From a virus (Duplodnaviria; Caudoviricetes), in IMG/VR virus record IMGVR_UViG_3300029305_004466: 64,000 nt of DNA; one strand, written 5' to 3'. Below, one piece after another: positions 8,482 through 55,689 of the stretch. Positions within the stretch are counted from its first letter, which is position 1; the number at the start of each line of letters is the position of its first letter. Under the pieces are notes generated by a model, which was not told the origin of the DNA, made no database searches, and worked only from the letters and a program-made list of their open reading frames with translations. The position numbers were made by a program, and so were the translations under genes.

Positions 8482-8537
8482 TAACACACCTTTATAGGGT
8501 GTTAAATATTTTTTCAAAGAAAAAGGAGAAAAGTACA

Positions 8538-9194
8538 ATGGAAACAACAAAAAACACAAACCCAATCGAGAACAATGTAGTAACCCTTACAGGCGAAATC
8601 GTATCTGAAGGCAGATTCAGTCATGATGTGTTCGGTGAAAAGTTTTACATCTATGACGTTAATGTTGCCAGATTAAGCGAACAGACTGATATTCTTCCTG
8701 TAACCATTTCTGAAAGATTATTAAATCTTGATGATTTAGCTATCGGTTCTAAGATTGCAGTAACCGGACAGTTCCGTTCTTACAACAAGCACGAAGAATC
8801 ATTCAACCGTCTCATTCTTTCCGTGTTTGCACGTACTGTTGACATCTTAACTGAGGAAACCGATGAAAAGGATGCTAACAGCGTAACTTTAAGAGGTTTT
8901 GTCTGCAAGAAACCAAGTTATCGCAAGACTCCATTAGGAAGAGAAATTTCTGATGTATTATTAGCGGTTAATCGTCCATATGGTAAGAGCGATTATATTC
9001 CATGTATCTGCTGGGGTAGAAACGCCAGATTTGCTGATAACTTTAATGTAGGCGATGAAGTTATCATGCATGGTAGAATTCAGAGCCGTACTTATGCTAA
9101 GAAGATTTCCGAAACAGAGACTGAAAACAGAACAGCATACGAAGTATCTGTATCTAAGATTGAGCTCTTAACAGAAAACTACGATGCAGAATAA
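8538..9194 (+). CDS. ssb: Tandem-OB single-stranded DNA-binding protein (clostridial SSB/PriB-like)
   Basis: Two OB repeats; YRKTPLGREISD, AVNRPYGKSDYIPCICWGRNA, GRIQSR; AAGGAG RBS before ATG 8538. Confidence 0.9.
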   Translation: METTKNTNPIENNVVTLTGEIVSEGRFSHDVFGEKFYIYDVNVARLSEQTDILPVTISERLLNLDDLAIGSKIAVTGQFRSYNKHEESFNRLILSVFARTVDILTEETDEKDANSVTLRGFVCKKPSYRKTPLGREISDVLLAVNRPYGKSDYIPCICWGRNARFADNFNVGDEVIMHGRIQSRTYAKKISETETENRTAYEVSVSKIELLTENYDAE

Positions 9195-13810: not shown

Positions 13811-13826
13811 AAACCCATTCGGGTTT
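13811..13826. promoter_or_regulatory. Recurrent mini-hairpin AAACCC-ATTC-GGGTTT (variant copy)
   Basis: Intergenic, heads the AAA/vWA cluster. Confidence 0.45.
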
Positions 13827-13855
13827 TTTATAGATTATTATAAGGAGGTTTAGAA

Positions 13856-14632
13856 ATGGTAATACATGACATTGATTTCTCTTGTCCACATGATGAATTC
13901 ATGGACGGCTTGAGAGATTTCTTAAACAACTGGGGAAATAACAATATGAAAGCTACTTCAGTTGAGAATGCCACAAAGAACGGTAGATATATGTATAAGA
14001 TTGAAGTCACCAATAATGATGACAACAATATTACCACAATGGTATTTGAAAAGAATGCCAATAATGGTGACATTATCTTCGTCCCAAGTGGATTTGGTAG
14101 TTTTGGTGGAACATTCCACAAGACAGAACATCTTCAGGATGATATAAAGGGTGGTGCAGATGATACGTCTATGGCATTTCTTGATTATCTTGAAAAGATA
14201 GCAAAGGAAAAGAAAGGTAAATTCGTTGCTAAGAACAACCATGGTGGTATTGTTTGTATTGTAAACGGTAATAGCAAAACCGCAAAGGAATGTGTAGTAG
14301 ACAGTAATGGCAGTGTTTACGGTTCCAAAGAAGTAAAGTCCGTTTCATTATTGGATGGCAGTGCATCCAGTCAGGTAAATTTTAACACCAAGATTGGTGA
14401 CTGGAACAAGCAAAGAAAGCTTGAAGACCCAGAATTCGCCAGAGTATTAGGCGATGCAAGTATGTCTATGACAGATAAAATGCATTATATCGGTAAGTAT
14501 GTAATGGAACTTAAGCTTAACGATGAAATCGAATCAGAAGAATTTAAGGATGTCTTTGTTCAGGCAGGTTTATTTACTTCTGGTTTCAGTAACAACAAAA
14601 CATTAAGCATGATGTACAAATTATTAAATTAG
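13856..14632 (+). CDS. Hypothetical protein, first gene of the AAA/vWA cluster
   Basis: AAGGAGG RBS. Confidence 0.8.
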   Translation: MVIHDIDFSCPHDEFMDGLRDFLNNWGNNNMKATSVENATKNGRYMYKIEVTNNDDNNITTMVFEKNANNGDIIFVPSGFGSFGGTFHKTEHLQDDIKGGADDTSMAFLDYLEKIAKEKKGKFVAKNNHGGIVCIVNGNSKTAKECVVDSNGSVYGSKEVKSVSLLDGSASSQVNFNTKIGDWNKQRKLEDPEFARVLGDASMSMTDKMHYIGKYVMELKLNDEIESEEFKDVFVQAGLFTSGFSNNKTLSMMYKLLN

Positions 14633-14642
14633 GAGGCTATTT

Positions 14643-15992
14643 ATGAGCGAAGCAGCTAACAACATTTTTGAAGGTTTTGAAGAATTATTCAATGATTTAG
14701 GTAATCCGGCAACATCTGCCGAGGCGGAACAGGGAGTAACAGCTCAGCCTGTCGCTGTTGCTAATAGCAGCGTTGAAATCGAAAACACAAATAATTCCAA
14801 TTTGGTTCCGGGAGCTCAGGCAAAGCTCACCATGATTAAGAGAGAATTAAATGATTTATTCATGGAAAGAGATAACGTTATTGACTGTATGTTATATGCC
14901 CTTGTTTCTGGTCAGTCTTTACTTATGCTTGGTAATCCGGGTACAGCTAAGAGTGCTATCACTTATGAAATGTGTAACCGTATTGAGAACGGCAAGTATT
15001 TCCAGTGGATGTTAAATAAGACTTCCGACCCATCTGAACTGTTAGGACCATATTCCATCAAGGAAATGGAAAACGATAAGTTCATGAGAATTACAACAGG
15101 TAAGCTTCCAGAAGCACACATCGCCTTTATTGATGAATGTTTTAAGGCGAATGCACCTGTATTAAACATTCTGTTACCAATCATGAATGAAAAGATTTTC
15201 TACAATGACGGTAAGCCAAACAACATTCCGTTAATGACTATGATTGGTGCTTCAAATGAAGGTCCAGAAGACGAATCCCTTGCAGCGTTCTATGATAGAT
15301 TCTTATTCAGAATCAATGTTCATTATGTAAAGGATGCCGCTAACAAGAAGCGTATGTACACAAACTACATCAACAATCGTAGAGGTCTTAACAATCTTGC
15401 AGGTAAGACAACTATTACTATTGATGAATTAAAGGCTCTTGCTGAAGCAAGTAAGCTTGTTCCTGTTCCAAAGGAAATCATCAATAAGTTCATCAAGTTC
15501 ATCAATGATTTGGAAAAGCAGTCCATTCATGTTTCCGACAGAAGACAGAATGAATGTCTTAAGATTTTACAGGCATCTGCTGTTGTACATGGTAGACAGC
15601 AGGTTGGTATTGATGATTTCAAGTCCTTAATCTATGTATTGTGGGACAAGGAAGAACAGATTCCGTTCATCGAAGCTACTATCACTAAGATGATTAATCC
15701 ATATGATGACCAGTTTAAGCAGTTTACAGACAGCTTTAACAGCATTAAGAAGGACATTGATAACTGCACAGACGAAAATGAAAAGTCTGCTAAGTCTCTT
15801 GAAGCAAAGGGTAGCATCGAAAAGCTTACTTCTAAGTTGAACAAGCTTATCAATGAAGCTTCTAAGAATGGTAAGGATATCACAGATTTCGCTAAGTTCA
15901 GAGACGAAATGGTAGCATATTCTAACAAGGTTGTTCAGGATGCTCTCGGTGCTTCTCTGGGTATCTCCAGTGATGGGAGCGACTTATTCTAA
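14643..15992 (+). CDS. MoxR/RavA-family AAA+ ATPase
   Basis: Walker A GNPGTAKS, ELLGP, Walker B AFIDECFKA, ILNILL, GASNE, YDRFLFR, SDRR. Confidence 0.92.
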   Translation: MSEAANNIFEGFEELFNDLGNPATSAEAEQGVTAQPVAVANSSVEIENTNNSNLVPGAQAKLTMIKRELNDLFMERDNVIDCMLYALVSGQSLLMLGNPGTAKSAITYEMCNRIENGKYFQWMLNKTSDPSELLGPYSIKEMENDKFMRITTGKLPEAHIAFIDECFKANAPVLNILLPIMNEKIFYNDGKPNNIPLMTMIGASNEGPEDESLAAFYDRFLFRINVHYVKDAANKKRMYTNYINNRRGLNNLAGKTTITIDELKALAEASKLVPVPKEIINKFIKFINDLEKQSIHVSDRRQNECLKILQASAVVHGRQQVGIDDFKSLIYVLWDKEEQIPFIEATITKMINPYDDQFKQFTDSFNSIKKDIDNCTDENEKSAKSLEAKGSIEKLTSKLNKLINEASKNGKDITDFAKFRDEMVAYSNKVVQDALGASLGISSDGSDLF

Positions 15993-16107
15993 TACGTACA
16001 AGTATAAGATTAAATATTCTTTAGACGAATTAAAAGTAGCTTTCCAAAAAATAGATAGTGCGATAGGGGCGTTAGACCCTAATGACCCCTATTTCACTGC
16101 AATATAG
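15973..16107 (+). CDS. Possible 44-aa ORF overlapping a stem-loop
   Basis: MGATYSNTYKYKIKYSLDELK...; fills the gap between the AAA and vWA genes; no clear RBS. Confidence 0.35.
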   Translation: MGATYSNTYKYKIKYSLDELKVAFQKIDSAIGALDPNDPYFTAI

Positions 16108-16122
16108 AAAAGGAGATAAACC

Positions 16123-17982
16123 ATGGGTGATGATGAATTATTTGATGATGATTTGTTTGACGACTTAGAAGATTTGGAAGACGATTATGACGGGTCTGCA
16201 AGCACTGATTCATTACATCAGACTGGTACAAGTGCTTTAGCAAGTAAACACGGTCTGGGCGGTTTTGAAAACATGACTGAAAAAGACATGGAAGATTTCA
16301 AAAACTCAGATGAATTCCAGAAATACAGTGCTGAAGTTGTTGGAACAGAACAGATTAAAGGCAATATGCAGGGTAAAACCGTACAGGAAATCTTAGGTCT
16401 TACCAGTATGAAACAGGCTATTAAACAGTCCTTTAATGCCTTTGAACATTATGATATCGACTTGGAATTCTTTCAAGATATCGTAGATACTTCACCAGTA
16501 ATGCAACAAACTATCGAAGAAGGTAATGAAATTTTACCTACATTCGAATATATGTATCAGGATATTTTCTTATCTTTGTATAAGTATAAAGCAAAACTGT
16601 TGCCAGAACACGAAATGCACATGTCTACAAGACTTAACAGAAAGTTCGCTGAGTGTTATCTGAATACACCAGAGTACATTAAATTAAGACAGACATGTAG
16701 ACTTGACCAGTTTAATGCTGCTCTTGGTACAGAAATTATTGGTAAGAAGCTTCTTAGTGTTGTAAGAGATGTAGTAAACAACATGAAAGAAGCAGAAGAA
16801 GCAAGACAGAAAATGCTTGAACTTATGAAGAAAGAACAGGAAATGGACGAACTCATTGAAGAAAATGAGGAAATGGATGAAATGTTACAGACATTACAGG
16901 CTAATGGCATGGGTAACAGTCAGCAGGCACAGCAGTTGCAGGCTCAGATGAACAGCAATATGGCAGCTAAACAGGCAATCCAGAAGATGGCTAATAAGAT
17001 TGCTGAAGAAATGGATGAACTTGTTCAGGAAGACGACCTTGCAAATGAGATTCATCAGAGAACAGGTAAGACATTTGATGAAGCATCTATGCAGGTTGCT
17101 GAAACATCTGATATGGTTGAAGCATGGGGTCTTGGCGAAGGAGAAAGATGTCGTGTATCTTATCAGAATAAGAAAGATGCTATCGAAAGAATTCGTAGGT
17201 CTTCTAAACTTAGAAAACTTACAGACCTTATTGGTAGATTTAAAGAATCCGCTATTACAGAGCAGAAAAAGAAAACCAAAAATGGTGCAGTAGAAATTGA
17301 ATCTGTTACTCTCGGTAATAAGATTGAAGATGTTTTACCATCCGAAAAGATGTTACTGTCTAATGAGGCAACCAAGAAAGATTTCTATAACAAGTATACT
17401 GAAAACCGTAACATGGTATATTCTAAGGAATCCAATAAGTCCAAGAATAAGGGACCTATTATCATTTGTTGTGATGAATCTGGTTCCATGGACGGTGACA
17501 GAGAAACATGGTCAAAGGCGTTTACCATGGGTGTACTTGAAATTGCTCAGATACAGAAAAGAGATTTCGCATTTATTGCTTATGACAGCAGAGCAAATGA
17601 CCCTATTATTATTAAGAAGGGTGAAGTATCTCCAGACAAGGTAATCACTATTTGTGAAGAATTCTTGGATGGTGGTACAAACTTTGAAGCTCCATTAAGA
17701 AAAGCATTGGAGCTCATTAAGAACTCTATATTTAAGAATGCAGATATTTTCTTCGTAACCGATGGTGATTGTGGCGTTTCTGATGGTTTTAAGAAAGAGT
17801 TCAAGAAGATAAAAGAAGAAAAAGAGTTTACATGTAAGGGAATTCTTGTAGACATGGGTGGTTATCGTTCTAGCGATTCCACATTGAGAGAGTTCTGCGA
17901 TGATGTTGTAAGAATCAGTAGCGTTGCAGACTTAAAGAATGGTGACTCTGAGGTTAATAAACAGTTATTCGGTTCCATCTAA
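16123..17982 (+). CDS. vWA-domain protein (ViaA/CoxE-like partner of the MoxR ATPase)
   Basis: MIDAS DESGSM, GGTNF, VTDG; central coiled coil; acidic N-terminus. Confidence 0.92.
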   Translation: MGDDELFDDDLFDDLEDLEDDYDGSASTDSLHQTGTSALASKHGLGGFENMTEKDMEDFKNSDEFQKYSAEVVGTEQIKGNMQGKTVQEILGLTSMKQAIKQSFNAFEHYDIDLEFFQDIVDTSPVMQQTIEEGNEILPTFEYMYQDIFLSLYKYKAKLLPEHEMHMSTRLNRKFAECYLNTPEYIKLRQTCRLDQFNAALGTEIIGKKLLSVVRDVVNNMKEAEEARQKMLELMKKEQEMDELIEENEEMDEMLQTLQANGMGNSQQAQQLQAQMNSNMAAKQAIQKMANKIAEEMDELVQEDDLANEIHQRTGKTFDEASMQVAETSDMVEAWGLGEGERCRVSYQNKKDAIERIRRSSKLRKLTDLIGRFKESAITEQKKKTKNGAVEIESVTLGNKIEDVLPSEKMLLSNEATKKDFYNKYTENRNMVYSKESNKSKNKGPIIICCDESGSMDGDRETWSKAFTMGVLEIAQIQKRDFAFIAYDSRANDPIIIKKGEVSPDKVITICEEFLDGGTNFEAPLRKALELIKNSIFKNADIFFVTDGDCGVSDGFKKEFKKIKEEKEFTCKGILVDMGGYRSSDSTLREFCDDVVRISSVADLKNGDSEVNKQLFGSI

Positions 17983-18000
17983 TGGAACCGAATGATTTTT
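17967..18000 (+). terminator. Terminator-like hairpin over the vWA stop codon
   Basis: ATTCGGTTCCAT-CTA-ATGGAACCGAAT, 12-bp stem, then GATTTTT. Confidence 0.65.
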
Positions 18001-18011
18001 AGGAGGTTAAT

Positions 18012-18629
18012 ATGGATTTCAAGAAAATTATTATGAGTGCAAAAGACTTCATTAAGGACTTTTGTACAAAAATCATGTCAGCAGATATGGTTGACTCTGC
18101 TAAGCAGGTATACTTTTTAGATAACCAGAAGCAGATTAGAGAAACAATGGAAAACCTTAACAGTGTTAAGACTTATTTCGATAACCTTGGTATCGAACTT
18201 GAAGATGGTTCTGAAGAACAGCAGGCTTATGAAATGTGCTGTGGTCTTATGCAGAAGCTTACAAAAACGCTTACTGACTATAAGAACAGTCAGTCGGCTA
18301 TTAAAAATGATGTAACTGTAGAAGAAACAACTGCTGTTGTAACAGAAGAAACAATCGCTAATGCGGCTCAGAATAACTCTTCCACAAAGCAGATTATTAA
18401 GGATATGAACGAATTAAACGAAAAGGCAAGCGTTGCTCAATTGCAGGAATTCACTCATGCGATTTTTGCTGGAAAAAAACCGGGGGTGTACGTAAAAGCA
18501 ACAACGGTTCAGGAGTTAAATGCGTTCATAAACACAGTCGCAGAAGAAAATCCAAACGAAAAAATCACCGTATGTGAAGTAATCTTCAATCCGATTCCGT
18601 TAAAACGTAAGACCGTTTATACGGTATAA
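18012..18629 (+). CDS. Hypothetical protein
   Basis: AGGAGG RBS. Confidence 0.8.
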   Translation: MDFKKIIMSAKDFIKDFCTKIMSADMVDSAKQVYFLDNQKQIRETMENLNSVKTYFDNLGIELEDGSEEQQAYEMCCGLMQKLTKTLTDYKNSQSAIKNDVTVEETTAVVTEETIANAAQNNSSTKQIIKDMNELNEKASVAQLQEFTHAIFAGKKPGVYVKATTVQELNAFINTVAEENPNEKITVCEVIFNPIPLKRKTVYTV

Positions 18630-18651
18630 AAATCATAAAGGAGGAATATAT

Positions 18652-19635
18652 ATGGCAGGAGCTATTTGCCAAACTAATAAAGATATTCCTGTAGATATGA
18701 CTTTAGGTAATCTTTTATATTACTCTTTATCTGATGTTAAAATCAAAGAACAGGAGCTAATGGATTTATTCTCTATGAATAAAATCCCTACAAGTTATAT
18801 CAGAAAAATATCTACTCCAGATGCTTTTAGAAGAGCAAGTTCAAGCGTTAAGAACACAACAATATTTATCACAGATTCTACCACTGGTGAAACTTTAAAG
18901 ACAAAGATAGAAGTAGATGAAGTGAAATCAGATGACATTGGCATTAAACGTATCATCGGAATTAAGGCTATCAATGAAAAGAATGAGGATATTTCTTATA
19001 TTCCAGTTGCCAGTGTTGAATTCTTTAGAAAGAATGAAACCGTAGCAACTTATGTAGAGCCAGCATACGCTTCCAATCAGGATATTTGCGATTTATGTGA
19101 TGAAATCGAAAACAAATATGCTGAATGGTCAGTGTATCATACAAAAGATACGGTAAGAAATACTATCTTGAGAATTATTAACGATACTCATCCCGTATCA
19201 TTAACACCAACAGGATTATGTAAATTCGTTCCTAGAAGTCATACAGATTTATTGTATTCTTTAAAAGAAGCATTAGCAGATATGGAGAACTTCTGTCAGA
19301 ATCCGGGAGAACATAATTTCATGGAAATTATCCCTGTAATCAATACAGAAGAACAGCAGAATCTTATCATGGATGCTTCAAAAAGAGAAATTAAAGAAGA
19401 GCTGTTTGGTTTTACGCAGGAACTGAAAGATGTATTACAAGCAAGACAGACACTCTCCTCAAGAACTGTTTCTTCTTATCTTGAGAGATTTAAGGCTTTA
19501 TCTGAAAAGGTAAGCGATTATGAAAGCTTGCTTGGTAATTATTTAAGCTTCCTTAAAGTACAGATTACAGATGCTGTAAAGTTAGTTAATGACAGCTCAG
19601 AAGATAACGTAGAGGAAGACCCTGTTTATGTATGA
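18652..19635 (+). CDS. DUF6744/DUF3150-like protein
   Basis: LGNLLYYSL..DAFRRASS..GLCKFVP pattern recalled from genes next to AAA/vWA pairs. Confidence 0.65.
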   Translation: MAGAICQTNKDIPVDMTLGNLLYYSLSDVKIKEQELMDLFSMNKIPTSYIRKISTPDAFRRASSSVKNTTIFITDSTTGETLKTKIEVDEVKSDDIGIKRIIGIKAINEKNEDISYIPVASVEFFRKNETVATYVEPAYASNQDICDLCDEIENKYAEWSVYHTKDTVRNTILRIINDTHPVSLTPTGLCKFVPRSHTDLLYSLKEALADMENFCQNPGEHNFMEIIPVINTEEQQNLIMDASKREIKEELFGFTQELKDVLQARQTLSSRTVSSYLERFKALSEKVSDYESLLGNYLSFLKVQITDAVKLVNDSSEDNVEEDPVYV

Positions 19636-20029
19636 ATACATTAAGGGTAAGAAAATACAATTAGATGAACATATGTTATCATCATCTGAGTTAGCTACAA
19701 TGTATGGATTACAGACTGAAAATGGGCAACCACACAGTCTTATGGTATCTGCTATATTAAGAGAATACGCTCGTAAGACTAATCTTAATATAGCGGAATA
19801 CTACTATGCACATAACAGAGGATGTATGAGAGTTTACCCAGAATTGTTGTGGAAGCCAGCAATGTCTGAATTTGCATATCATAATGACATAGATATTGAC
19901 AATGGTAAACAGACAAGAATTTATAAGATTGATTACGAAAAGAAAAAGTTTGCTTATGTTGTTAATAAGAACATAAAGCAACAAAAAATTATAGATTTAA
20001 AAGAAAGGATGAAACGTAATGGGTATTAA
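19628..20029 (+). CDS. Hypothetical protein, possible HTH DNA-binding
   Basis: LSSSELATMYG helix pattern. Confidence 0.7.
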   Translation: MYEYIKGKKIQLDEHMLSSSELATMYGLQTENGQPHSLMVSAILREYARKTNLNIAEYYYAHNRGCMRVYPELLWKPAMSEFAYHNDIDIDNGKQTRIYKIDYEKKKFAYVVNKNIKQQKIIDLKERMKRNGY

Positions 20030-20852
20030 GAGATGTCCAACTTGCGGTAGTACAAAATTACTTGCAAGAAAAATAACAGGTGTACAGGTAGAATCCATAG
20101 AAAATGAATTTAAGATTAACGCTGAAGGTAAGAGCTATCAGATTGAAATCGTTGGATGTGCTCACTGTAAAGCAAATCTTAACGAATCTCAGCTTGTAGA
20201 AATGGTACAGTGTAAGAAGTGTGGCAAGTTTACAGAACCTGCAAATCTTGACGCTAACGGAGAATGCGATGTATGTAGAGCAATTCAGGAGAGACCAGAC
20301 CTTGCAAATATGTCCAGAGAAGACCTTATTCGCATGATGTTAAAGCTTGAAAGAACCGTACCACCAGTACCAGCACCTGTAACTCCAATTACAGCAGTTG
20401 ATACAGCAACTCCTACAACAAGTACAGTAGCTCAGGAAAAGATGGAAGCTGCAAGAAATGCTATGGCTAATGCAGGCGATACATTCTCCAAACAAATTGT
20501 AAAAGAAACTCAGGAAGAAGTAACAGAAATTCAACAAAATGTAAAGCAAATGCAGGAAGCTATGAATCCACCAGAAGAAGCAACAACTGATGACGCAGCT
20601 CCTAAGAGAAAAAGAGGACCACGTAAAAAGAGTGATGCCGTAACAGAAGAGGCAACAGAAGAACAGGTAAATGAATCCGCAGAAGCTATGTCCGATTTAC
20701 AGGAAGCACCGTTTCCAGAACAGGACGAAACATTAAAGGAAGTTTTTGCTCAGCAGGAAGTAGTGGTAGAACCTCAGCCTCAGGCTGTAACACCACAGGC
20801 TGCGGCTCCAAGTATGGGATTTACAATGTTTGATAACGAACAATCATTTTAG
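20019..20852 (+). CDS. Zn-finger protein with disordered acidic tail
   Basis: Four CxxC pairs at the N-terminus; P/E/Q/A-rich C-terminus ending FDNEQSF. Confidence 0.8.
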   Translation: MGIKRCPTCGSTKLLARKITGVQVESIENEFKINAEGKSYQIEIVGCAHCKANLNESQLVEMVQCKKCGKFTEPANLDANGECDVCRAIQERPDLANMSREDLIRMMLKLERTVPPVPAPVTPITAVDTATPTTSTVAQEKMEAARNAMANAGDTFSKQIVKETQEEVTEIQQNVKQMQEAMNPPEEATTDDAAPKRKRGPRKKSDAVTEEATEEQVNESAEAMSDLQEAPFPEQDETLKEVFAQQEVVVEPQPQAVTPQAAAPSMGFTMFDNEQSF

Positions 20853-25566: not shown

Positions 25567-26079
25567 ATTAGTTCTCGGAAAAGCCCAAAGGTCATTGCTG
25601 TCGTAGATGCAAGCGGAAAGTTTTTAAGTTTTTGTTCTAGAGAAAAAGCAAAGAAATTAGTACAAGAGCATAAAGCTTATTATATAGGCGATAAAACACT
25701 AAAGTTAAAAGTATCTAAAGTAAGAGAAGCAAGAGAGAAAAAAGAAATTGTTAAAAGTGCAAAACGTATTTGCTATATATGCAATAGAAAGATATCAGAA
25801 AAAGAAACAGCTACAGTAGACCATGTAATTCCAAAGTCAAGGAACGAATTTGCTTCCAATAAGTTTAACTTGAAATGCTGTTGTGAACGTTGTAATAATG
25901 ACAAAGCTGATATGACTCTTCTTGAGTATGTTCAACACATGAGATATAATAGAAAAGCTTACAGCTATATTTCAGATAAGAGATTAGATTATCTGGAGCA
26001 GTATGCGAAAACATACGAAAAAGACTATTATAATTTTTACATTAAGTATTTAGACAAGTTAGGGGGAGTTTATGAGTAA
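25567..26079 (+). CDS. HNH endonuclease with N-terminal PLMP/RRXRR-like segment; probable ATT start
   Basis: Frame open from 25549; AGAAAGG SD then ATT at 25567; CYIC, TVDHVIPKSR, NLKCCCERCNNDK. Confidence 0.75.
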   Translation: MSSRKSPKVIAVVDASGKFLSFCSREKAKKLVQEHKAYYIGDKTLKLKVSKVREAREKKEIVKSAKRICYICNRKISEKETATVDHVIPKSRNEFASNKFNLKCCCERCNNDKADMTLLEYVQHMRYNRKAYSYISDKRLDYLEQYAKTYEKDYYNFYIKYLDKLGGVYE

Positions 26080-29000
26080 AATTGATTTTGCACATATCCA
26101 TTGCCATACCTGTTATTCTATACAGGATGCAATGCCACAGCTAAAAGATTATGTTAATGCAATATATAAACAGAATCAGAATAGCAGTAAATATAACATT
26201 GTAGGTTTTGCAATGACTGACCATGGTGTACTTCATGGTATTACGGACCATTATCGTGCTTGTAATGAACCAGATTTTCCAGAAAGAAAAACAAAAGCTT
26301 TGTATGGTATTGAAGTTTATCATTGCGAAGATATTAATAATAATCCGAACAAAGATAGATTTCACTTGGTTCTTATAGCAAAAGATGATACAGGTCTTCA
26401 CAATATTTATAAAATAGCTTCCCATGCAGGAATGAATCTGATTGAAGGTAGACAAAAGAATTTCCCTACAACAGATTTTAATTTTCTAAAAGCACATGGA
26501 AAAGGAATAATAGCAAGTTCTGCTTGCTTAGGTGGAATTATCCCTAAACTTATAACAGATGGTCGTTATGATGATGCTAAATCATGGGCAATATCGTTTA
26601 GGGAAATCTTTGACGAATTCTATCTTGAAATACAGGCGTTAGATTGTACAGAACAGTTAATTGTAAATGCTGGACTTGTACAGATGAGCAATGAAACGGG
26701 AATCCCTTTAGTAATTACTTCTGATAGTCATTATATAAATAAAGGCGATGCTGCTTATCATAATATCTTAAAGGATATTTCACATCAGTTAAAATTCTCA
26801 GAACCAGCTCATTTAAAAACTCCAGAAGAGTTGGAAGACTATTGTATGCTTCATAATATTCCTTTGAGCTGTTTATCTAATACCGGTGTAATAGCAAGTC
26901 ATTGTACTGCTAATCCAAAGCCTGTAAATAATAGATATTTGTTACCAGTATTCCCATGTCCACAAGGTTATACGGAAGAAACTTATTTGAGAAAGTTAGC
27001 CTTTGAAGAGTTAAAAAAGAAACTTATCAAGAATAAAATACCGAATCCAACTAAGTATATCAAGGAAATGCTCTATGAATTAGAGGTTATTTGTAATGCA
27101 GGTTATGCTGGTTATTTCTTGATATTGTGGGATTGGTTTAAATGGTGTCGTGAAAATGACATATTGACTGGACCGGGAAGAGGCAGTGCTGCTGCAAGTA
27201 TTGTCTCTTATGCATTGGATATTACAAAGGTAGACCCTGTTAAGAATGGTTTCATTTTTGAAAGATTCTTAAATCCGGGAAGATTATCATTCCCAGATAT
27301 TGATACCGATATTCCAAGAAGTAAACGTGGTGAAGCTATTGCTTATTTACAGCAAAGATACGGATTTGATAATGTATCTCAGATTATTACTTTCGGTAAG
27401 TACAAACTGAAGAATGTAACTAAAGATGTCATGTCAAATCTGGGTTGCCCATTCCAAGAAGCAAATGCAATAACTAAAGATATTCCTGATATGATTGACG
27501 GTAAAGAAGTAACATGGGATTTAATTGAAGGTATTGCTACAGACCCTTCTAACGAAAAGTATACAAACTTTACCGAACAAGAAAAAGCACAGGTTGCAAA
27601 TATTTATAATAAGTATCAAGACCTGTTTAGGAAGTATCCTACAGTTTATGATGCTATTAAGTCTATTTGTGGATGTATTAAGAGTACTGGTATTCATGCA
27701 GGTGGTGTAATTGTTTGTAGAGAACCTATTAAGAATCATATGGGTATTCTTGCTCCTACTGGTTCTGCTGTATTACCTATCATTCAGATAGCGATGAATG
27801 ATTTGGAGTTCTATGGTTTTCTTAAGATAGACGCATTGGGATTATCTACTCTTGATGTAATCAAAGAAGCCATGGATTTAGCAGGGCTTGATTATGATTG
27901 GTATGATTCAGAAGACTATTCAGACTCTAAGGTATATGAAATGCTTCGTAATGATGAAACTACCGATATATTCCAGATGGCGGGTTATATGGCAACTAAG
28001 TTAATCAATGACTTTAAAGTTGATGACATAGAAGGTCTTACAGCTGTTAATGCTGGTAATAGACCGGGACCTCTTGAAAAAGACCCTAAGACTGGTAAAT
28101 CTATGACGGATTTATATACCGAAAGAAGACAAACTGGTGTAGTTCCTAGTATCGACCCAAGAATTGACCCGTTACTTACTAAAACATTTGGTTGTATCTG
28201 GTATCAGGAAGACTGTATGAACTTAGGAAAAGTAATGGCAGGTTATGATGCAGGTGGAGCAGACAGTCGTATTCGTACAGTTCTGGGTAAGAAAAAGATG
28301 AAAATGATACCAGAAATACGAAACGAATTCGTATACGGTAAAGCGTCTATATTTAATGAAAAGCATGAAGTTACTGGCATGTCAGAAGATAATTCTAAAT
28401 GGTGTGCTGGTGCTATCAATCATGGCTTCTCTGAAGAACTCGCAAAGCAAATCTTCGAATCCATGGAAGCATTTGCTAAGTATTCTTTTAATAAAAGTCA
28501 TGCTTTCTGTTATGCTGTAGTAGCGTATAAGACTGCTTATTTGTCTTTGTATTATCCTGTTGAATTTGCTATTGCAAACTGTACGGTAAATGAAGAAGAA
28601 GAGAAGATAGTTGCAACGTTATCTTTAGCCAAGAAAAGAAAAATACCTGTTCTAGCCCCAGACATTAACAAATCTGGTACTGGATTTAGTTATGAAATGG
28701 ATGGAGTAAAAGAGTGTGTAAGATATGGCTTAAAGGCTATTAAAGGTGTTGGGGCTAAAGTTGTGGAGTTTATATCCAAGTATAAGCAATTAACAAAAAC
28801 CACGTTCGCAGACTTCGATGATTTTTACAATAAGATTCATGCAGACGATGCTATCGTAAACAATTTGGTTAACGAAATAAGAGTGCAGACAGGAAAGAAC
28901 AGCCCTAATCCTATGAAGAAAGACGTAGAAGTAGCATTAATTCTTTCTGGTGCATTTGATTATTGTGAGCCAAATAGATACAAACTTCTCAATCATTATG

Positions 29001-29545
29001 TTATAGACATCAAGAAAGAGAAGGAGTTAAAAATGTTAGGAGAGGCAACTCCAAGACAATTCCCACTTAAAGAAAAAGATTATAAGCGTAAAGATAAACT
29101 TGCACTTGAGAAATTTTACATGGGCAGTTATATATCTGAACATCCATTGGATAGTTTCGCTTATGAAGATTTCCAGAGTGCCAATGAAAATCAGTTAATA
29201 AAGAGTACATTTATAGTAAGTGCTGCTTCTCTTAAGGAAACAAAAAAGAAAAAGAAGTATTTATCCATTAAGTGTACTGATAAAACTGATTCGGAAACAA
29301 CTATTAATGTCTTCAATGAAAATTTAGCGTTAACTCTTAAATCTGATATTAAAAAGAACAGCATTATAATTGTTGAAGGAAATGTAAACCATCAGTTCAA
29401 CAATATAAATGCTAAGAATGTTAAGATAGCAATGAAAAAGATTGTAGATACTGAAGACATGGATATTCCAGAATATGAAAGAATAGATGAAACTCCTGTA
29501 TCTCAGGAACCAGAAGATGTTTTAAAGAGTATCTTTGGAATATAA
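26072..29545 (+). CDS. dnaE: DNA polymerase III alpha subunit (DnaE type)
   Basis: PHP HIHCH/TDHG/DSH, GPGRGSAA, PDIDTD, HAGG, YSFNKSHA, C-terminal OB fold. Confidence 0.97.
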   Translation: MSKIDFAHIHCHTCYSIQDAMPQLKDYVNAIYKQNQNSSKYNIVGFAMTDHGVLHGITDHYRACNEPDFPERKTKALYGIEVYHCEDINNNPNKDRFHLVLIAKDDTGLHNIYKIASHAGMNLIEGRQKNFPTTDFNFLKAHGKGIIASSACLGGIIPKLITDGRYDDAKSWAISFREIFDEFYLEIQALDCTEQLIVNAGLVQMSNETGIPLVITSDSHYINKGDAAYHNILKDISHQLKFSEPAHLKTPEELEDYCMLHNIPLSCLSNTGVIASHCTANPKPVNNRYLLPVFPCPQGYTEETYLRKLAFEELKKKLIKNKIPNPTKYIKEMLYELEVICNAGYAGYFLILWDWFKWCRENDILTGPGRGSAAASIVSYALDITKVDPVKNGFIFERFLNPGRLSFPDIDTDIPRSKRGEAIAYLQQRYGFDNVSQIITFGKYKLKNVTKDVMSNLGCPFQEANAITKDIPDMIDGKEVTWDLIEGIATDPSNEKYTNFTEQEKAQVANIYNKYQDLFRKYPTVYDAIKSICGCIKSTGIHAGGVIVCREPIKNHMGILAPTGSAVLPIIQIAMNDLEFYGFLKIDALGLSTLDVIKEAMDLAGLDYDWYDSEDYSDSKVYEMLRNDETTDIFQMAGYMATKLINDFKVDDIEGLTAVNAGNRPGPLEKDPKTGKSMTDLYTERRQTGVVPSIDPRIDPLLTKTFGCIWYQEDCMNLGKVMAGYDAGGADSRIRTVLGKKKMKMIPEIRNEFVYGKASIFNEKHEVTGMSEDNSKWCAGAINHGFSEELAKQIFESMEAFAKYSFNKSHAFCYAVVAYKTAYLSLYYPVEFAIANCTVNEEEEKIVATLSLAKKRKIPVLAPDINKSGTGFSYEMDGVKECVRYGLKAIKGVGAKVVEFISKYKQLTKTTFADFDDFYNKIHADDAIVNNLVNEIRVQTGKNSPNPMKKDVEVALILSGAFDYCEPNRYKLLNHYVIDIKKEKELKMLGEATPRQFPLKEKDYKRKDKLALEKFYMGSYISEHPLDSFAYEDFQSANENQLIKSTFIVSAASLKETKKKKKYLSIKCTDKTDSETTINVFNENLALTLKSDIKKNSIIIVEGNVNHQFNNINAKNVKIAMKKIVDTEDMDIPEYERIDETPVSQEPEDVLKSIFGI

Positions 29546-29927: not shown

Positions 29928-30506
29928 ATGTTAAACATGAACAACATTTGTATCTTCGAAGGAAGAACAACAAGCAACCAGAAATTTTCACAGTTTAACG
30001 GACAAAACGGACCAGTAGATAAGGCGAACTTCAGTATTTCTGTACCAAGAATACTGAGTGCTCAGCAGAAGCAGGACCCAAATGCTAAAAAGGTAGACTT
30101 TATCAATTGTTCTATGATTGGTGCTCAGGTTAAAACCTTACAGCAGCATTTCCCAGCTGGAACACCTATTAAGGTTGTTGCAAAGTACACTGAATATGAA
30201 ACAGTTGACAGTGCTACAGGACAGAAGAAATACGGCAACATCTTCGAAGTAGAAAGCATCGGTTTCGTAACTACTCCAGCACAGAATCAGGGACAGAATG
30301 GTAACGGTGGTAACTATCAGCAGAACAATGGCGGATATCAACAGAATAACAACGGTTATCAGGCTCCTCAGAATAACGGTGGATATCAGCAGAATTATCA
30401 GCAACCTGCACAGAACCAGCCACAGCAGAACTATATGGGACAGCCACAGCAGAATGCACAGCAGGGCAACTTCCAGATGTTCGGAGAAGATAACTTCCCA
30501 TTTTAA
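29928..30506 (+). CDS. ssb: Single-stranded DNA-binding protein
   Basis: NICIFEGR, DFINC OB fold; Q/N/G-rich linker; acidic tip EDNFPF. Confidence 0.88.
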   Translation: MLNMNNICIFEGRTTSNQKFSQFNGQNGPVDKANFSISVPRILSAQQKQDPNAKKVDFINCSMIGAQVKTLQQHFPAGTPIKVVAKYTEYETVDSATGQKKYGNIFEVESIGFVTTPAQNQGQNGNGGNYQQNNGGYQQNNNGYQAPQNNGGYQQNYQQPAQNQPQQNYMGQPQQNAQQGNFQMFGEDNFPF

Positions 30507-51422: not shown

Positions 51423-51806
51423 TTATTCTGGTTTGATTTCTTCTAATTCTGGAGTTTCAAAAGGTTTTAATGGTTCAGCCGCTTCTTCAGCCTGTTTTTT
51501 AGCTAAGATAGTCTTCATTTCCATTAAAGCATCTTCGATAATTTTCTTAAGAGTTTCTTCTCTTATAATCATACTTAAGATAGGATGCTGAGCTTTTATC
51601 GTACTGATAACTTCAGCAAACTTAATCTGTCCTGTTTTGCTACCCCATTCTTCTTCAGCTACAGTCACTAAATAGAGTGCTGCTTCGTAAATACCTTTTT
51701 TACCTTTTGCCACCACATATACTACCACACAAGCAATAATAACTGCCAAGAGGATAACATAAGGGTTTTCAGCTAAACTTTTTACCATGTCGTTAATAAT
51801 AGTCAT
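51423..51806 (-). CDS. Holin-like membrane protein
   Basis: Single N-terminal TM; AEEEWGSKTGQIKF motif typical of LL-H-like holins. Confidence 0.7.
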   Translation of the reverse strand: MTIINDMVKSLAENPYVILLAVIIACVVVYVVAKGKKGIYEAALYLVTVAEEEWGSKTGQIKFAEVISTIKAQHPILSMIIREETLKKIIEDALMEMKTILAKKQAEEAAEPLKPFETPELEEIKPE

Positions 51807-52942
51807 TTCAACTTACCTCCATTTTCTGCTATATATGTTTTAATTTTTTCTATAGCCATCTTTCTATGTTTTACAATAGTAATTCTGTGACAACCATATA
51901 TACTTGCTATTTCAGCATCAGTTTTATGTTGCACAAAAGACATTACTATCAATTCTCTTTCGTATGATGTTAAGCTTTTAAACTCTTCTCCACATGTATT
52001 CCCATTGGTCCAATTAAAGTTTAATGACTCCATTTCATATGGGTCAACGTCTTCTTCTCTAAGAACTAATGAATTACATATTTCTAATTGTTTTTGTCTG
52101 TCTGTTTTTGTTAACATTTTCTCTAAAATCTTATCTGTATCCATGTCTTTTAATATAACTCTCATTCCAACTTTATCTATTGTTGAGAAATTAGCTTCAG
52201 AATTCTTACAAATGCTTGAATGTGTTATTGATTCTGGCTCAAATTCGCTTTCAATACTAAACATTTTAAGATGAGCTAATGGGTCGCCAACAATTTTAGT
52301 TAAAGAGTTATATGCATCGAAATGGAAACACTTATTTACGTACATATGAAATGTACCATTCTCTTTATGGTACACATCTCCTTCTTTAGTTATTTTATAT
52401 TTATTTGCCATATTTAATAATGTGCAGGTTAATTCATTGTATATATCCCAATATTCATATTTAGAAAATAACTTTTGAATTTTAACACATGCATCACTAA
52501 ATAATATTCCCTTTTCATTACTATTCTTTGCTTTTTCTCTATCGCTCTTTGAGATAAATAAACCAATGAATTTAGTTAATGATTTATCGTAAGGTCTTAC
52601 GAATTTACTATTGTATTCTTCAAGTTCTTTCTCTTTGTTATAGTATTCTCCATGATATCCATAACAGATGAAGTCTGTATATTTTTTAATGAATCTATGA
52701 AAAACACTAACTATGTATTGGGCGGCTTCTAAATTACCTGATTTATATAATAACAGGTTATTATTAAGCTCCGCATAATCTTCCTCCGTAAACTTTTTGT
52801 ATTCCGTAGGAAATGCTCTATCAAAATCCGCCTTAGTTTGTTTAGAATAAGAATAGACAGAATCATTAAAAGAAGAATACGAATCTATACTTTCTTCAAA
52901 ATCATCGTCAAATTCCATATCGTCTTCTAAGTACTCTGTCAT
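51803..52942 (-). CDS. Phage sigma-70-family RNA polymerase sigma factor
   Basis: YKSGNLEAAQYIV..FIKKY (region 1.2/2); LTSYERELIVMSF..KTDAEIA (region 4 HTH). Confidence 0.8.
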   Translation of the reverse strand: MTEYLEDDMEFDDDFEESIDSYSSFNDSVYSYSKQTKADFDRAFPTEYKKFTEEDYAELNNNLLLYKSGNLEAAQYIVSVFHRFIKKYTDFICYGYHGEYYNKEKELEEYNSKFVRPYDKSLTKFIGLFISKSDREKAKNSNEKGILFSDACVKIQKLFSKYEYWDIYNELTCTLLNMANKYKITKEGDVYHKENGTFHMYVNKCFHFDAYNSLTKIVGDPLAHLKMFSIESEFEPESITHSSICKNSEANFSTIDKVGMRVILKDMDTDKILEKMLTKTDRQKQLEICNSLVLREEDVDPYEMESLNFNWTNGNTCGEEFKSLTSYERELIVMSFVQHKTDAEIASIYGCHRITIVKHRKMAIEKIKTYIAENGGKLK

Positions 52943-52949
52943 ATCTTTC

Positions 52950-53477
52950 TCAACTCCTAGTTTTATTCAGGTGAGCAATTCCAATACAAACCGAATCATA
53001 CATATCACTAGTTTTCTTTTTATTTTGTTTGTCACTGTAAGGTCCTATTCTATCTGGTAAATCAGGATACAGTTCAATTATTTTATTTGCAACTTCTTCT
53101 TTAGAAGCATTGCCGCTAAGACCTAAATTTTTTCTTGTTTCTTTAGGCTCTTGGGTAAATACTTCTGCACAATCAGCAAACATAAAGTGGCATATAATAG
53201 CACCTCTAAGTTTTGATAATTGTAAACCCGTTTTTAAATTCTTTGAATGGGAAAACCCGTCTTCTAATGCTATCTCTTTAATCGGAACAGGGTTAGAACA
53301 ATTGTGTTGTACAAACACATTGTCTAACTCTGTAACAATGCTTTTTATTCTTTCATTTTCAGGAATATCTGGTTTAGTTATGTATCGGCAGCACTCTATT
53401 ATTTCTCTGGTGTTAGCATCAATAATAGAGTAACCTGTCGAGCTTAAAGACGGGTCAATAGATAATATATAGCTCAT
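52950..53477 (-). CDS. ruvC: RuvC-like Holliday junction resolvase
   Basis: ILSIDPSLSSTGY, ALE, GNASKEEV, DMYDS. Confidence 0.88.
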   Translation of the reverse strand: MSYILSIDPSLSSTGYSIIDANTREIIECCRYITKPDIPENERIKSIVTELDNVFVQHNCSNPVPIKEIALEDGFSHSKNLKTGLQLSKLRGAIICHFMFADCAEVFTQEPKETRKNLGLSGNASKEEVANKIIELYPDLPDRIGPYSDKQNKKKTSDMYDSVCIGIAHLNKTRS

Positions 53478-53494
53478 TGGAATCACCTACTGAC

Positions 53495-53523
53495 ATTATA
53501 ATATTTTTTGAATTATTTGTCCA
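53495..53523 (-). promoter_or_regulatory. SigA-type promoter for ruvC-sigma-holin
   Basis: TGGACA-17-TATAAT on the minus strand. Confidence 0.6.
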
Positions 53524-53677
53524 ATTCTTTTGGAATAGTTTCGTCTACAAAAGTAAACTGAGGACTTTTCCCGTCAAGTGCTTTGTCTTTGATTTCTTTT
53601 TGTAATTGTTCGTTTGCAATAGTTTTGTTATCATCTGTAATAGTCATTTCACCAAACTGAGTTTGCATTTTCATCAT
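53513..53677 (-). CDS. Small hypothetical protein (54 aa), not in ORF track
   Basis: MMKMQTQFGEM...; ATGA overlap with the upstream gene. Confidence 0.55.
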   Translation of the reverse strand: MMKMQTQFGEMTITDDNKTIANEQLQKEIKDKALDGKSPQFTFVDETIPKELDK

Positions 53678-54486
53678 AATGATTCGCCTTCTTTCTTAAT
53701 ATAGTTTTCACATTGATTCCTATAGGTACAATGGAAACATCTTGTATCAGGACATATTGTATAGATGTCATTTCTAATACACTTAACTGTATTGATTACA
53801 GTTTGTTTCAGCATATTAAAATCTTTTGCATCTCTAAATGATGGTACATTCTTTTTCTTGTATATGTTAGCATATACAACTTGATAATCTTTAGAGGTAA
53901 ATGTTTTTTCAAATGCAAATGCGGCAGCTGTGAGTTCTAAATCATATCGCATCTGCATTAGGGTTTGGAATTTATCTTTTCTATGCTGGAACTTTATTAT
54001 CTGAAATATGGGATTATTATTATCATCGTGGAATTCTCTTATATATTCCCATTTACCAGTTAAAACAATATTGTTTGTAATGTTAACAGCATAGCCTTTA
54101 TTTATTAGTATAGGATATTGACTACCTTGTTTCATTAAATCATGGAAAGAGATTAAGGTTTCTATTCCATTCTTTCTAAGCAAATCATGTCTATCTCTCA
54201 TAGAAGCAGATGGGGTAGTCATTAACTTTATCATTGTTTTGTCTTTAATCCAGTATTTTCCCCACATTCTAGTAAGGAAACCTATTTCAACATTACTGTT
54301 GTTTTTTAATGCTGTAATATAAGAATAAAAGCAACTTCTAAGCAGTCTATCATATGCTTCTGTTAGATTTTCTGAACCGGAATTATTGTATTTGAGTTTG
54401 TAATATATAGGACAATAGTTATAGTCTAATATTTCCTGTATATCTATTTTAAAAACGTGGGAGTTGTCTACCTGCTCGTAAACCAT
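53674..54486 (-). CDS. Cas4/RecB-like PD-(D/E)XK-fold protein with 4-Cys cluster; catalytic motif altered
   Basis: YCP..Y near the N-terminus, C..CFHC.YRNQC near the C-terminus; LTGKWEYI..QIIKF. Confidence 0.7.
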   Translation of the reverse strand: MVYEQVDNSHVFKIDIQEILDYNYCPIYYKLKYNNSGSENLTEAYDRLLRSCFYSYITALKNNSNVEIGFLTRMWGKYWIKDKTMIKLMTTPSASMRDRHDLLRKNGIETLISFHDLMKQGSQYPILINKGYAVNITNNIVLTGKWEYIREFHDDNNNPIFQIIKFQHRKDKFQTLMQMRYDLELTAAAFAFEKTFTSKDYQVVYANIYKKKNVPSFRDAKDFNMLKQTVINTVKCIRNDIYTICPDTRCFHCTYRNQCENYIKKEGESL

Positions 54487-54784
54487 GTTGCCTTTCTGCT
54501 AATAATCCCGGGGTCTCTCTGTCGCATCTGTCAAACTGAGCTTGCTGACAACCCCAATGGATTTGCCATTTAAACTCTCTTTTTCTTGTTGCAGGGTCTT
54601 TACTGAAGTCCTCTGGTAACATTGTTTTACCGCAAATACGGCATACAATATATTCCCCCGGAGCAGGAGGAGTAGGTAGCATATAGTTTCTACCTTTCTC
54701 CTTTTCCGCTTGGAGAGAATAGTCTTGGACTTGTTTTACATATTCAGCTAATTCTTCATTACTTGGAATCGCCATTATTATCAC
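54449..54784 (-). CDS. Zn-binding hypothetical protein
   Basis: CRICG..HWGC. Confidence 0.7.
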   Translation of the reverse strand: MIIMAIPSNEELAEYVKQVQDYSLQAEKEKGRNYMLPTPPAPGEYIVCRICGKTMLPEDFSKDPATRKREFKWQIHWGCQQAQFDRCDRETPGLLAERQHGLRAGRQLPRF

Positions 54785-55193
54785 CTACTATTCTTTTACT
54801 AAGTTCCTTTATAGAATCCATTATAGCATCTGAAACGTAAATAATAAAGTTCTTTCTCTTAATCATTTTATCTCTGTCTGCATAAGTATGGCTACAAATT
54901 GGAATTTGGCATGTTTGACAGGATACATATAAATGACTTGCCTTATTTACACACTTGCTACAGATTGGACAAGGATTATATCTTGGGCAGGTTTTTGTTT
55001 TAGGTTCTCTTTCTTCGAATATATCTTTATTGTTTCTCATAAGCTTGTCGTTTTTATCAAGTTCTCTTCTAAGTTTTTGTTCATCGAACTTTGGCATTCC
55101 TGTAAGCGGGTCTATCTGTGTATCAGATTTTGCCATGTCATAAAGACCCTTTAAATAATTATTCATCATTGTCGGTGTCCTCCTCACAAACAT
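54759..55193 (-). CDS. Cys-rich hypothetical protein (start may be ATG 55136)
   Basis: CP..CPIC.KC..C..C..C. Confidence 0.7.
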   Translation of the reverse strand: MFVRRTPTMMNNYLKGLYDMAKSDTQIDPLTGMPKFDEQKLRRELDKNDKLMRNNKDIFEEREPKTKTCPRYNPCPICSKCVNKASHLYVSCQTCQIPICSHTYADRDKMIKRKNFIIYVSDAIMDSIKELSKRIVGDNNGDSK

Positions 55194-55680: not shown

Positions 55681-55689
55681 AATACCCTC

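Follow-up and report, generated by a model that had tools for sequence, protein, structure and literature searches.

A MoxR-class ATPase, a vWA protein and a DUF6744 protein linked across phages, plasmids and islands as a putative ternary machine of Gram-positive mobile elements

The DNA analysed here is a 64,000-nucleotide stretch (the window) of a virus of the Caudoviricetes (Duplodnaviria; IMG/VR record IMGVR_UViG_3300029305_004466), in which seven open reading frames (ORFs) occupy positions 13856-20852 of the plus strand. In order, they encode a 258-aa protein, a MoxR-class AAA+ ATPase, a von Willebrand factor A (vWA) protein, a 205-aa protein, a DUF6744 protein, a 133-aa protein and a 277-aa zinc-ribbon protein. 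[quoted passage not shown] This set of three (the trio) probably constitutes a self-contained ternary machine of Gram-positive mobile elements. The original prediction, made from the letters of the window alone, had described all seven ORFs as a MoxR-vWA remodelling machine with dedicated accessory genes. All seven ORFs were present in the order and place given there and the kind of system was upheld, but its extent shrinks from seven genes to three because the other four genes have homologues only inside their own phage clade and thus do not qualify as dedicated partners.

The ATPase gene (14643-15992, plus strand, 449 aa) matched the Pfam families bpMoxR (1.5e-51), AAA_5 (8.8e-22) and AAA_lid_8 (4.7e-16), all over their cut-offs, and phrog_19600 (4.6e-112). 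The protein carries the GNPGTAKS and IDEC motifs, and the Walker A (G97, P99, G100 and K103), Walker B (D164-E165), sensor-1 (N205) and R300/R301 residues were invariant across 15 homologues. The same three Pfam families were also found in the ATPases of the Moorella phage and of the Alicyclobacillus, Streptomyces and Brevibacillus plasmids described below. The RavA-like character given to the protein earlier was supported by the bpMoxR match and by the NCBIfam RavA equivalog NF010054 (2.4e-53). The score of 181.9 bits is far under the curated cut-off of 681 and only model positions 11-344 of 498 were aligned (protein residues 62-392), for which reason the ATPase is classed as RavA-like and not as RavA.

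The vWA gene (16123-17982, plus strand, 619 aa) encodes a protein whose N-terminal tail is acidic; a helical N-domain and, at the C-terminus, a vWA domain follow, and the protein ends approximately 55 residues past the last MIDAS residue. The acidic N-terminus, the helical middle part and the intact MIDAS had all been anticipated and were all seen. Matches to VWA_2 and VWA_CoxE were just over the cut-offs, while phrog_24053 was matched at 7e-98 and ViaA at 1.3e-17. The MIDAS residues (D451-E-S453-G-S455, T519 and D547) were invariant in 32 homologues including distant plasmid copies. The ViaA equivalog NF008230 gave 64.2 bits against a cut-off of 500, with residues 209-547 aligned to model positions 49-425, and the protein appears to be ViaA-like in architecture only. 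Since the catalytic motifs and MIDAS residues are invariant in homologues, the ATPase and the vWA protein both look active. The Pfam scan showed no CbbQ_C on the ATPase, no CobT or CobT_C on the vWA protein, and no VMAP, iSTAND, FtsH, propeller, effector or effector-associated (EAD) domain on the vWA or DUF6744 proteins. A PADLOC scan of the cluster proteins gave marginal coiled-coil-type matches only (E ≥ 2e-4), and no anti-defence family was matched.

Short acidic motifs containing Phe were found at the N- and C-termini of the ATPase (14643-14700 and 15970-15989), at the N-terminus of the vWA protein (16123-16190) and at the C-terminus of the 277-aa protein (20820-20849), with endings such as DLF-stop and EEPF-stop in relatives. 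The motifs were kept within the clade and were missing from the shorter plasmid and Moorella versions. Tails of this type resemble the acidic C-terminal tails of replisome proteins of the single-stranded DNA-binding protein (SSB) type, and are typical of peptides that bind replisome hubs. By analogy, the acidic tails of the ATPase, the vWA protein and the 277-aa protein may dock on a common hub.

The DUF6744 gene (18652-19635, plus strand, 327 aa) matched PF20529 at 5.2e-32 with 111.5 bits against a threshold of 27, covering model positions 21-299 of 314. The protein had previously been labelled DUF6744/DUF3150-like; the DUF6744 half of this label was retained and the DUF3150 half was discarded, with no match at E ≤ 10. 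An exhaustive HMMER search with a limit of E ≤ 0.001 retrieved 414 representative clusters, of which almost all are stand-alone proteins of 300-340 aa, and the family comprises about 400 clusters at 50% identity. Conserved positions included G19, D57, F59 and A62 (at the start of a D-A-F-R-R-A helix), R169, P228 and Y290, together with a V-R-P-S-G-G-V-Y-F stretch around F192. The acidic D57 is almost invariant and is a candidate ligand of the MIDAS. The AlphaFold model, built with 124 sequences, had a mean predicted local distance difference test (pLDDT) score of 93.5 and a predicted template modelling (pTM) score of 0.88 and showed an alpha/beta N-domain (residues 1-232) followed by a three-helix bundle (233-320). 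A Foldseek search of the PDB with the full model and with the N-domain gave nothing at E ≤ 0.001 (TM < 0.3). With the full model, the wide VIA-align search paired residues 232-320 with three-helix bundles of a generic kind only (Z up to 10.7, inside the helical background), and the same search with the N-domain reached a top Z of 7.3 over 83 residues on a GNAT-like sheet fragment, which is at noise level. No solved structure was thus a convincing relative of either model. The shape search of the ESM Atlas returned DUF6744 only, the structural neighbour being a DUF6744 cluster (TM 0.79); the feature search of the same atlas gave no match for the DUF6744 or the 258-aa protein, and a sequence-profile search of the PDB with DUF6744 gave nothing meaningful. 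The protein is acidic (isoelectric point, pI, 4.8), which weighs against a general DNA-binding role. A complex prediction of the vWA and DUF6744 proteins with alignments, run without controls, scored 0.00, which speaks neither for nor against binding. In the literature open to searching, no paper was found mentioning DUF6744 or its linkage to the MoxR-vWA pair.

The linkage of the three genes was assessed across other elements. One genome per prokaryotic species was scanned with an alignment of nine DUF6744 sequences, single-protein queries having given no relatives; loci were accordingly gathered by DUF6744 similarity, and near-duplicates were included (e.g. L013/L014 and L038-L040/L044). A total of 39 DUF6744 loci were found in Bacillota and Actinomycetota, and 30 of these had all three genes within a few kb. 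The remaining loci without the full trio were mostly short contigs or partial matches. A scan of IMG/VR added six further loci, four with the full trio. When 1,113 ORFs taken from 55 loci were clustered all against all, the DUF6744 family was present in 50 loci, the vWA family in 44 and the ATPase family in 42, with the next family at 10; the linkage counts show strong linkage, not independent events. Carriers were jumbo phages, a Moorella phage, large Bacillota and Actinomycetota plasmids, islands and IMG/VR contigs, and the gene order was permuted between lineages, being either AAA-vWA-DUF6744 or DUF6744-AAA-vWA. In Moorella phage MTATph1, DUF6744 is followed by three small genes and then the ATPase-vWA pair. 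The order is primase-x-dnaN-DUF6744-AAA-vWA in an Alicyclobacillus plasmid, DUF6744-x-AAA-vWA in a Brevibacillus plasmid and AAA-vWA-DUF6744 in a Streptomyces plasmid. When 18 window proteins were compared by tblastn with five distant elements, only the ATPase (32-40% identity), the vWA protein (27-32%) and the DUF6744 protein (20-28%) were common to them. Of the 50,697 phage records searched, only Bacillus phage 0305phi8-36 and MTATph1 gave long matches to the vWA subfamily (67-86% of the query), and these are also the two named complete phages that encode DUF6744. The expectation that the accessory genes would be syntenic with the ATPase-vWA pair in relatives was thus borne out for DUF6744, in distant phages, plasmids and islands, and failed for the other four.

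Genes neighbouring the trio in bacterial loci encoded RadC, PD-(D/E)XK, DUF4258, a DUF6094 methyltransferase (with SNF2), integrases and transposases. In a locus on a Paenibacillus sp. chromosome (L036, 32-13401), the trio is flanked upstream by a fragment of the type I restriction protein HsdR and by AAA_13 and SLH proteins, and downstream by a restriction protein of the GmrSD type together with a transposase, a setting that resembles a defence island. A family of approximately 150 aa with no Pfam match was found directly upstream of DUF6744 in 10 of the 55 loci, all of the Paenibacillus/Bacillus group (e.g. L029 7438-7905 and L033 6634-7083), and may be a lineage-specific fourth component.

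By homology with RavA-ViaA, CbbQ-CbbO, NorQ-NorD, CobS-CobT and Rea1/midasin, the ATPase would assemble into a ring onto which the vWA protein would dock. The MIDAS metal ion would then grip an acidic side chain of the target, and ATP hydrolysis would pull the target or free it in an altered conformation. This scheme follows the general mechanism of MoxR-vWA pairs, in which the client is held by the MIDAS through an acidic residue or an extended peptide and, on ATP hydrolysis, is released in a changed state (PMC7159879). From the intact motifs and the co-inheritance, we infer that the three proteins form a complex in which DUF6744 would be the dedicated third subunit, either an obligate client or a specificity factor for the true target. 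The trio may act soon after entry of the element, during establishment, either in counter-defence or in the remodelling of DNA-replication or recombination complexes, as suggested by its early/replication-block position in the phage and by the establishment-type cargo around plasmid and island copies. With DUF6744 as third subunit, the trio would constitute a MoxR-vWA ternary system of a new type that is confined to Gram-positive mobile elements. Few AAA+ machines with unknown clients are as common as the MoxR-vWA pairs, and the conserved third gene provides a concrete client or adaptor candidate for them. The system is also testable, with 0305phi8-36 in culture and the plasmids residing in culturable Brevibacillus, Alicyclobacillus and Streptomyces strains.

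Several points weigh against the trio as a ternary machine. The sampling of loci by DUF6744 and the presence of near-duplicates mean that the counts overstate the number of independent observations. The DUF6744 gene of 0305phi8-36 lies approximately 8.5 kb from the vWA gene, showing that tight operon linkage is not universal. The DUF6744 loci L017, L021-L023 and L042 had no ATPase or vWA gene in the DNA examined, some of these being short contigs. Finally, no domain of the effector or DNA-binding type was detectable, and the acidic DUF6744 protein has a fold that gives no functional clue.

Comparison with described systems showed that RavA-ViaA of Escherichia coli are the best named sequence relatives of the window pair, the ViaA match spanning both the N-domain and the vWA domain. 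However, the pair scored far below the respective cut-offs (182 vs 681 and 64 vs 500 bits), no LARA-type domain was detected, the window pair is borne by a mobile element and not by the chromosome core, and its third gene, DUF6744, is absent from RavA-ViaA. Ternary conflict systems that add a conserved third protein to a MoxR and vWA core are already well established (Kaur et al. 2020, PMC7159879); the described types (VMAP, iSTAND, FtsH and beta-propeller) occur in chromosomes of multicellular bacteria (PMC7159879). The trio resembles them in its co-inherited third protein and in the top Pfam match of its ATPase, bpMoxR, which derives from these systems. It differs in having DUF6744 as the third protein, no effector or EAD on the vWA protein, and a distribution on mobile elements of Bacillota and Actinomycetota and on phages.

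Trios of AAA, vWA and DUF3150 genes on conjugative elements had been mentioned in the original prediction. Such a block does exist in IncC plasmid pAR060302, in the order AAA (CbbQ_C), a 302-aa protein, ssb, bet, exo, DUF3150 and vWA (CobT type), but its products are not detectably related to the window proteins. Vcrx089, a MoxR-class ATPase, and Vcrx090 protect the entering IncC plasmid from type I restriction (PMC7498323). The IncC and SXT/R391 block is like the trio in combining a mobile MoxR-class ATPase, a vWA protein and a protein of 300-425 aa beside recombination genes; its ATPase is of the CbbQ/CobS type and its vWA protein of the CobT type, whereas the window proteins are RavA/ViaA-like. 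BLASTP between window and IncC proteins gave no significant match in either the ATPase or the vWA comparison. Homology of DUF6744 to DUF3150 (PF11348) was tried and rejected, with hhalign giving a probability of 0.1% for the 124-sequence DUF6744 profile against a DUF3150 protein of IncC, and the PF11348 model had no match in three DUF6744-carrying genomes. Homology of Vcrx090 (302 aa) to DUF6744 was likewise rejected (hhalign probability 0.4%). Judged by these comparisons, the IncC set and the trio appear to be parallel solutions of separate lineages and not one family.

True homologues of the ATPase, vWA and DUF6744 proteins were found in 0305phi8-36 as gp66, gp63 and gp46 (40%, 32% and 28% identity, respectively), encoded on one strand in a similar replication block. 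Unlike in the window, gp46 is separated from gp63 by about 16 small genes. In the annotation of that phage gp63 and gp66 are 'metalloprotein chaperonin subunits' and gp46 is hypothetical, and no link between them is annotated. The pair of Acidianus two-tailed virus and the CobS/CobT-type pairs of T4-like (group 2.2) phages are virus-encoded MoxR and vWA proteins like those of the window, but they belong to other subfamilies, have no DUF6744, include some peptidase fusions and have been given roles in tail or virion assembly or in the supply of cobalamin.

Several explanations compete for the role of the trio. One, possible but doubtful, is that the trio shields incoming or replicating DNA of the element against host restriction or other immunity, using ATP to strip or inactivate a defence complex of the host; it takes up the anti-defence or host-takeover role suggested originally and narrows it to three genes. 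The IncC proteins Vcrx089 and Vcrx090 (the latter of no known family), encoded in one block with DUF3150 and vWA genes, are the only experimental precedent (PMC7498323), although they have no detectable homology to the window proteins and the DUF3150 and vWA genes lie outside the hde locus (vcrx089-093) defined by transposon-insertion sequencing (TnSeq; PMC7498323). The trio was found only on DNA resembling mobile elements, beside establishment or anti-restriction cargo (RadC, the DUF6094 methyltransferase with SNF2, and DUF4258), and clade relative L004 has a sponge gene with an Acb2/Tad1-hairpin domain between its vWA and DUF6744 genes. However, no PADLOC or anti-defence family was matched, and the Paenibacillus L036 trio stands among host-type defence genes (HsdR, AAA_13 and GmrSD), which fits a defence island equally well. 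A more specific form of this explanation, rather improbable in our judgement, is that the trio is an unrecognised widespread establishment or counter-defence motor of Gram-positive jumbo phages, megaplasmids and islands, the functional counterpart of the IncC/SXT AAA-vWA-DUF3150/hde set, which would pull through its MIDAS at the cost of ATP to dismantle a nucleoprotein defence complex such as type I restriction enzymes on incoming DNA, with DUF6744 as the recogniser of the target. If true, it would extend the IncC hint to Gram-positive phages and plasmids and add an energy-dependent class to counter-defence. A replication or recombination accessory, which would assemble, load or recycle clamp, polymerase, SSB or nuclease complexes, is likewise a tentative candidate. 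Both in the clade of the window, the window included, and in 0305phi8-36, they lie between SSB/SNF2 helicase genes and genes for a uracil-DNA glycosylase (UDG)-like protein, Cpn10, a clamp and DnaE; primase and dnaN adjoin the Alicyclobacillus copy, dnaN lies approximately 6 kb upstream in Robertmurraya locus L030, and the Moorella phage trio stands beside ribonucleotide reductase and near SbcCD, RuvC and UvsX. The acidic Phe tails of the ATPase, vWA and 277-aa proteins, of a kind typical of replisome hub binding, point the same way, but the short plasmid and Moorella versions do not have them. Outside jumbo phages the trio has no recurrent companion from a replication family (dnaN clusters with it in under 4 of the 55 loci), and the Streptomyces copy adjoins sugar-metabolism genes.

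A role as a virion or tail assembly chaperone is very unlikely. The MoxR/vWA pair of Acidianus two-tailed virus is a precedent for it, and such a role has been proposed for the pair found in group 2.2 jumbo phages (PMC7824862, PMC7159879); gp63 and gp66 of 0305phi8-36 were named as chaperonin subunits by their annotators. Yet the trio lies in the replication block, on the opposite strand to the structural-looking minus-strand block at 51-64 kb (itself without family matches), chromosomal islands that contain integrases and transposases carry it as well, and three trio-bearing plasmids of 125-134 kb had no detectable TerL (PF03354, PF03237) or HK97 capsid (PF05065). The idea that the plasmid carriers are phage-plasmids was dropped as unsupported by these three packaging and capsid families, which divergent structural genes could escape. 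Metal-cofactor insertion of the chelatase type, as by CobS/CobT, NorQ/NorD or CoxD/CoxE, is very improbable; its object would be a metalloenzyme of the host or the phage, for example the anaerobic ribonucleotide reductase or the radical-SAM proteins encoded nearby. MoxR-vWA pairs often mature metalloenzymes, and NrdD and a radical-SAM gene are present in the window block, while a ribonucleotide reductase gene adjoins the trio in the Moorella phage. A list of such pairs is given in PMC7159879, and viral cobST has been interpreted as a cobalamin-related auxiliary function (PMC8651126). Against this, the proteins carry no CbbQ_C or CobT domains and are RavA/ViaA-like rather than CobS/CobT-like, no metalloenzyme gene recurs with the trio in the 55 loci, and a DUF6744 partner is unknown from any chelatase. 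That the full block of seven genes is one dedicated system, with the flanking proteins as clients or adaptors, is also unlikely. Relatives with as little as 55% vWA identity still have the order 258aa-ATPase-vWA-205aa-DUF6744-133aa-277aa, the gap between the 258-aa and ATPase genes is only 10 nt, and similar acidic Phe-containing motifs are shared by the ATPase, vWA and 277-aa proteins. However, the whole region is syntenic in the clade with insertions inside the block, none of the four genes was present in any distant trio locus, and the four proteins are unlike their positional equivalents in 0305phi8-36.

The four other genes of the interval were examined individually. Within the clade (vWA identity 93-55%) the order of the seven genes was kept, as was the entire region, and synteny inside the clade is of little informative value because the whole region is syntenic there. 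Insertions within the block occurred in relatives, a 125-aa gene before the ATPase gene and the Acb2/Tad1-hairpin gene after the vWA gene in L004. The latter, of the anti-CBASS/anti-Thoeris sponge family (L004 12025-12384), stands together with a 60-aa gene between the vWA and 200-aa genes. The 258-, 205- and 277-aa families were found in 4 of the 55 loci only, namely the window and its clade relatives L002-L004, and homologues of the 133-aa protein in L002 and L004 only. A word-indexed search of 5.8 billion proteins gave 32 homologue clusters for the 258-aa protein, all on contigs of approximately 200 kb of the same clade, and 37 clade-restricted clusters for the 205-aa protein. An hhalign comparison of the four proteins with the 0305phi8-36 positional equivalents gp67, gp48, gp47 and gp44 showed no similarity, a weak test with profiles of four sequences. 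On this distribution, the four genes appear to be lineage-specific neighbours and not core parts.

The 258-aa protein (13856-14632, plus strand) and the 205-aa protein (18012-18629, plus strand) had been called unknowns. Searches of Pfam, PHROGs, NCBIfam and PADLOC assigned neither them nor the 133-aa protein to a family, the only matches being marginal and of coiled-coil type; those of the 205-aa protein were weak and of the SMC/Rad50 type. The stop codon of the 258-aa gene lies 10 nt before the ATPase start, and its product could be a lineage-specific accessory outside the conserved core. The 133-aa protein (19628-20029, plus strand) is basic (pI 9.3) and had been labelled 'HTH-like' (helix-turn-helix), a label that no family match backs. 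The 277-aa protein (20019-20852, plus strand) had been labelled a Zn-finger protein, which fits its four conserved N-terminal Cys pairs (CPxCG, CxxC, CKxCG and CDVC); these are compatible with zinc ribbons, for which the Pfam matches are weak. An acidic linker, long and disordered, comes next, and the conserved C-terminal tail is likewise acidic and has Phe as its last residue. It probably belongs to the replication block rather than to the trio.

Codon usage was uneven across the interval. The ATPase gene was the most codon-biased gene in the window, with in-frame counts of AAG 38/AAA 0, CAG 14/CAA 0, TTC 15/7 and ATC 18/19 and no ATA, while its glutamate codons stay GAA (33:2) and AAA triplets occur 13 and 19 times out of frame. 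With a window-wide AAG share of 0.42, the chance of 38 out of 38 is approximately 5e-15 by our own calculation from the counts. A codon bias had been reported earlier (towards AAG, AAC, TTC and ATC); it was confirmed, being strongest in the ATPase gene and moderate in the 258- and 205-aa genes, and was not seen in the DUF6744, 133-aa and 277-aa genes. The AAG:AAA ratio of the ATPase gene was 37:1 in sister contig L055 (90% nucleotide identity), 17:24 in L056 of the next lineage and 14:22 in L002, and the CAG preference of this gene holds throughout the clade. No tRNA genes were found in the window. High expression, as originally suggested, is compatible with the bias. The avoidance of AAA in this single gene is near-absolute and lineage-specific.

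Two RNA structures were identified on the plus strand. A terminator-like hairpin (13811-13831) lies ahead of the cluster, 22 nt 3' of the stop codon of the upstream 316-aa gene, and consists of a 6-bp GC-rich stem and a 4-nt loop (AAACCC-ATTC-GGGTTT, 13811-13826) followed by a T run. The hairpin had been noticed as a motif heading the block; its presence stands, while its status as a special recurrent motif was dropped, the structure looking like an intrinsic terminator. A loose search for its motif gave 4 matches in the window, where 0.5 would be expected, and 4 was reached in 1 of 100 shuffles. It is likely to mark a transcription-unit boundary ahead of the cluster. The second structure is a stem-loop (16055-16100) in the ATPase-vWA spacer, which is 130 nt long, with a minimum free energy of -29.8 kcal/mol (z = -4.2). 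Its stem was kept in L055, other hairpins were present in L056 and L003 (one a classical terminator), and no hairpin was found in this spacer in L002 or L004. It may be an attenuator or stability element setting the ATPase:vWA ratio.

The cluster is located in the replication/recombination module of the phage. Before the cluster, the plus-strand block encodes NrdD, an NlpC/P60-LysM protein, SSB, an SNF2 helicase and DUF4262; after it come UDG-like and amidase-SPOR proteins, Cpn10, a protein of the radical-SAM type, DUF5688, a clamp-like protein, DnaE, a second SSB, RecA, UvrD, SbcCD, primase and ThyX. The G+C content of the window is 30-38%. Close vWA protein relatives were on metagenomic contigs of 195-233 kb, and Bacillus phage 0305phi8-36 was the only nucleotide match to the window among the phage records searched; for these two reasons the window is assigned to a Firmicute jumbo phage of approximately 200 kb, apparently a distant relative of 0305phi8-36. 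A divergent minus-strand block occupies 51423-64000, and its start near 51.4 kb coincides with a flip of the GC skew. Its two largest ORFs (420 and 557 aa) had no Pfam match, and the block is presumably structural or late.

In addition, DnaE is a single 1157-aa ORF in the window (26072-29545), while in the relatives (L002 19272-21431, L003 17946-21405 and L004 20474-21818) it is broken after the PHP/NTPase part. A LAGLIDADG-type gene lies 3' of the split DnaE in L002 and L004, and an HNH gene lies 5' of DnaE in all of them. Finally, the window contains two SSB-family genes (8499-9194 and 29928-30506), the second of which is very rich in glutamine (CAG 30/CAA 3) and shows a strong bias towards C/G-ending codons like that of the ATPase gene.

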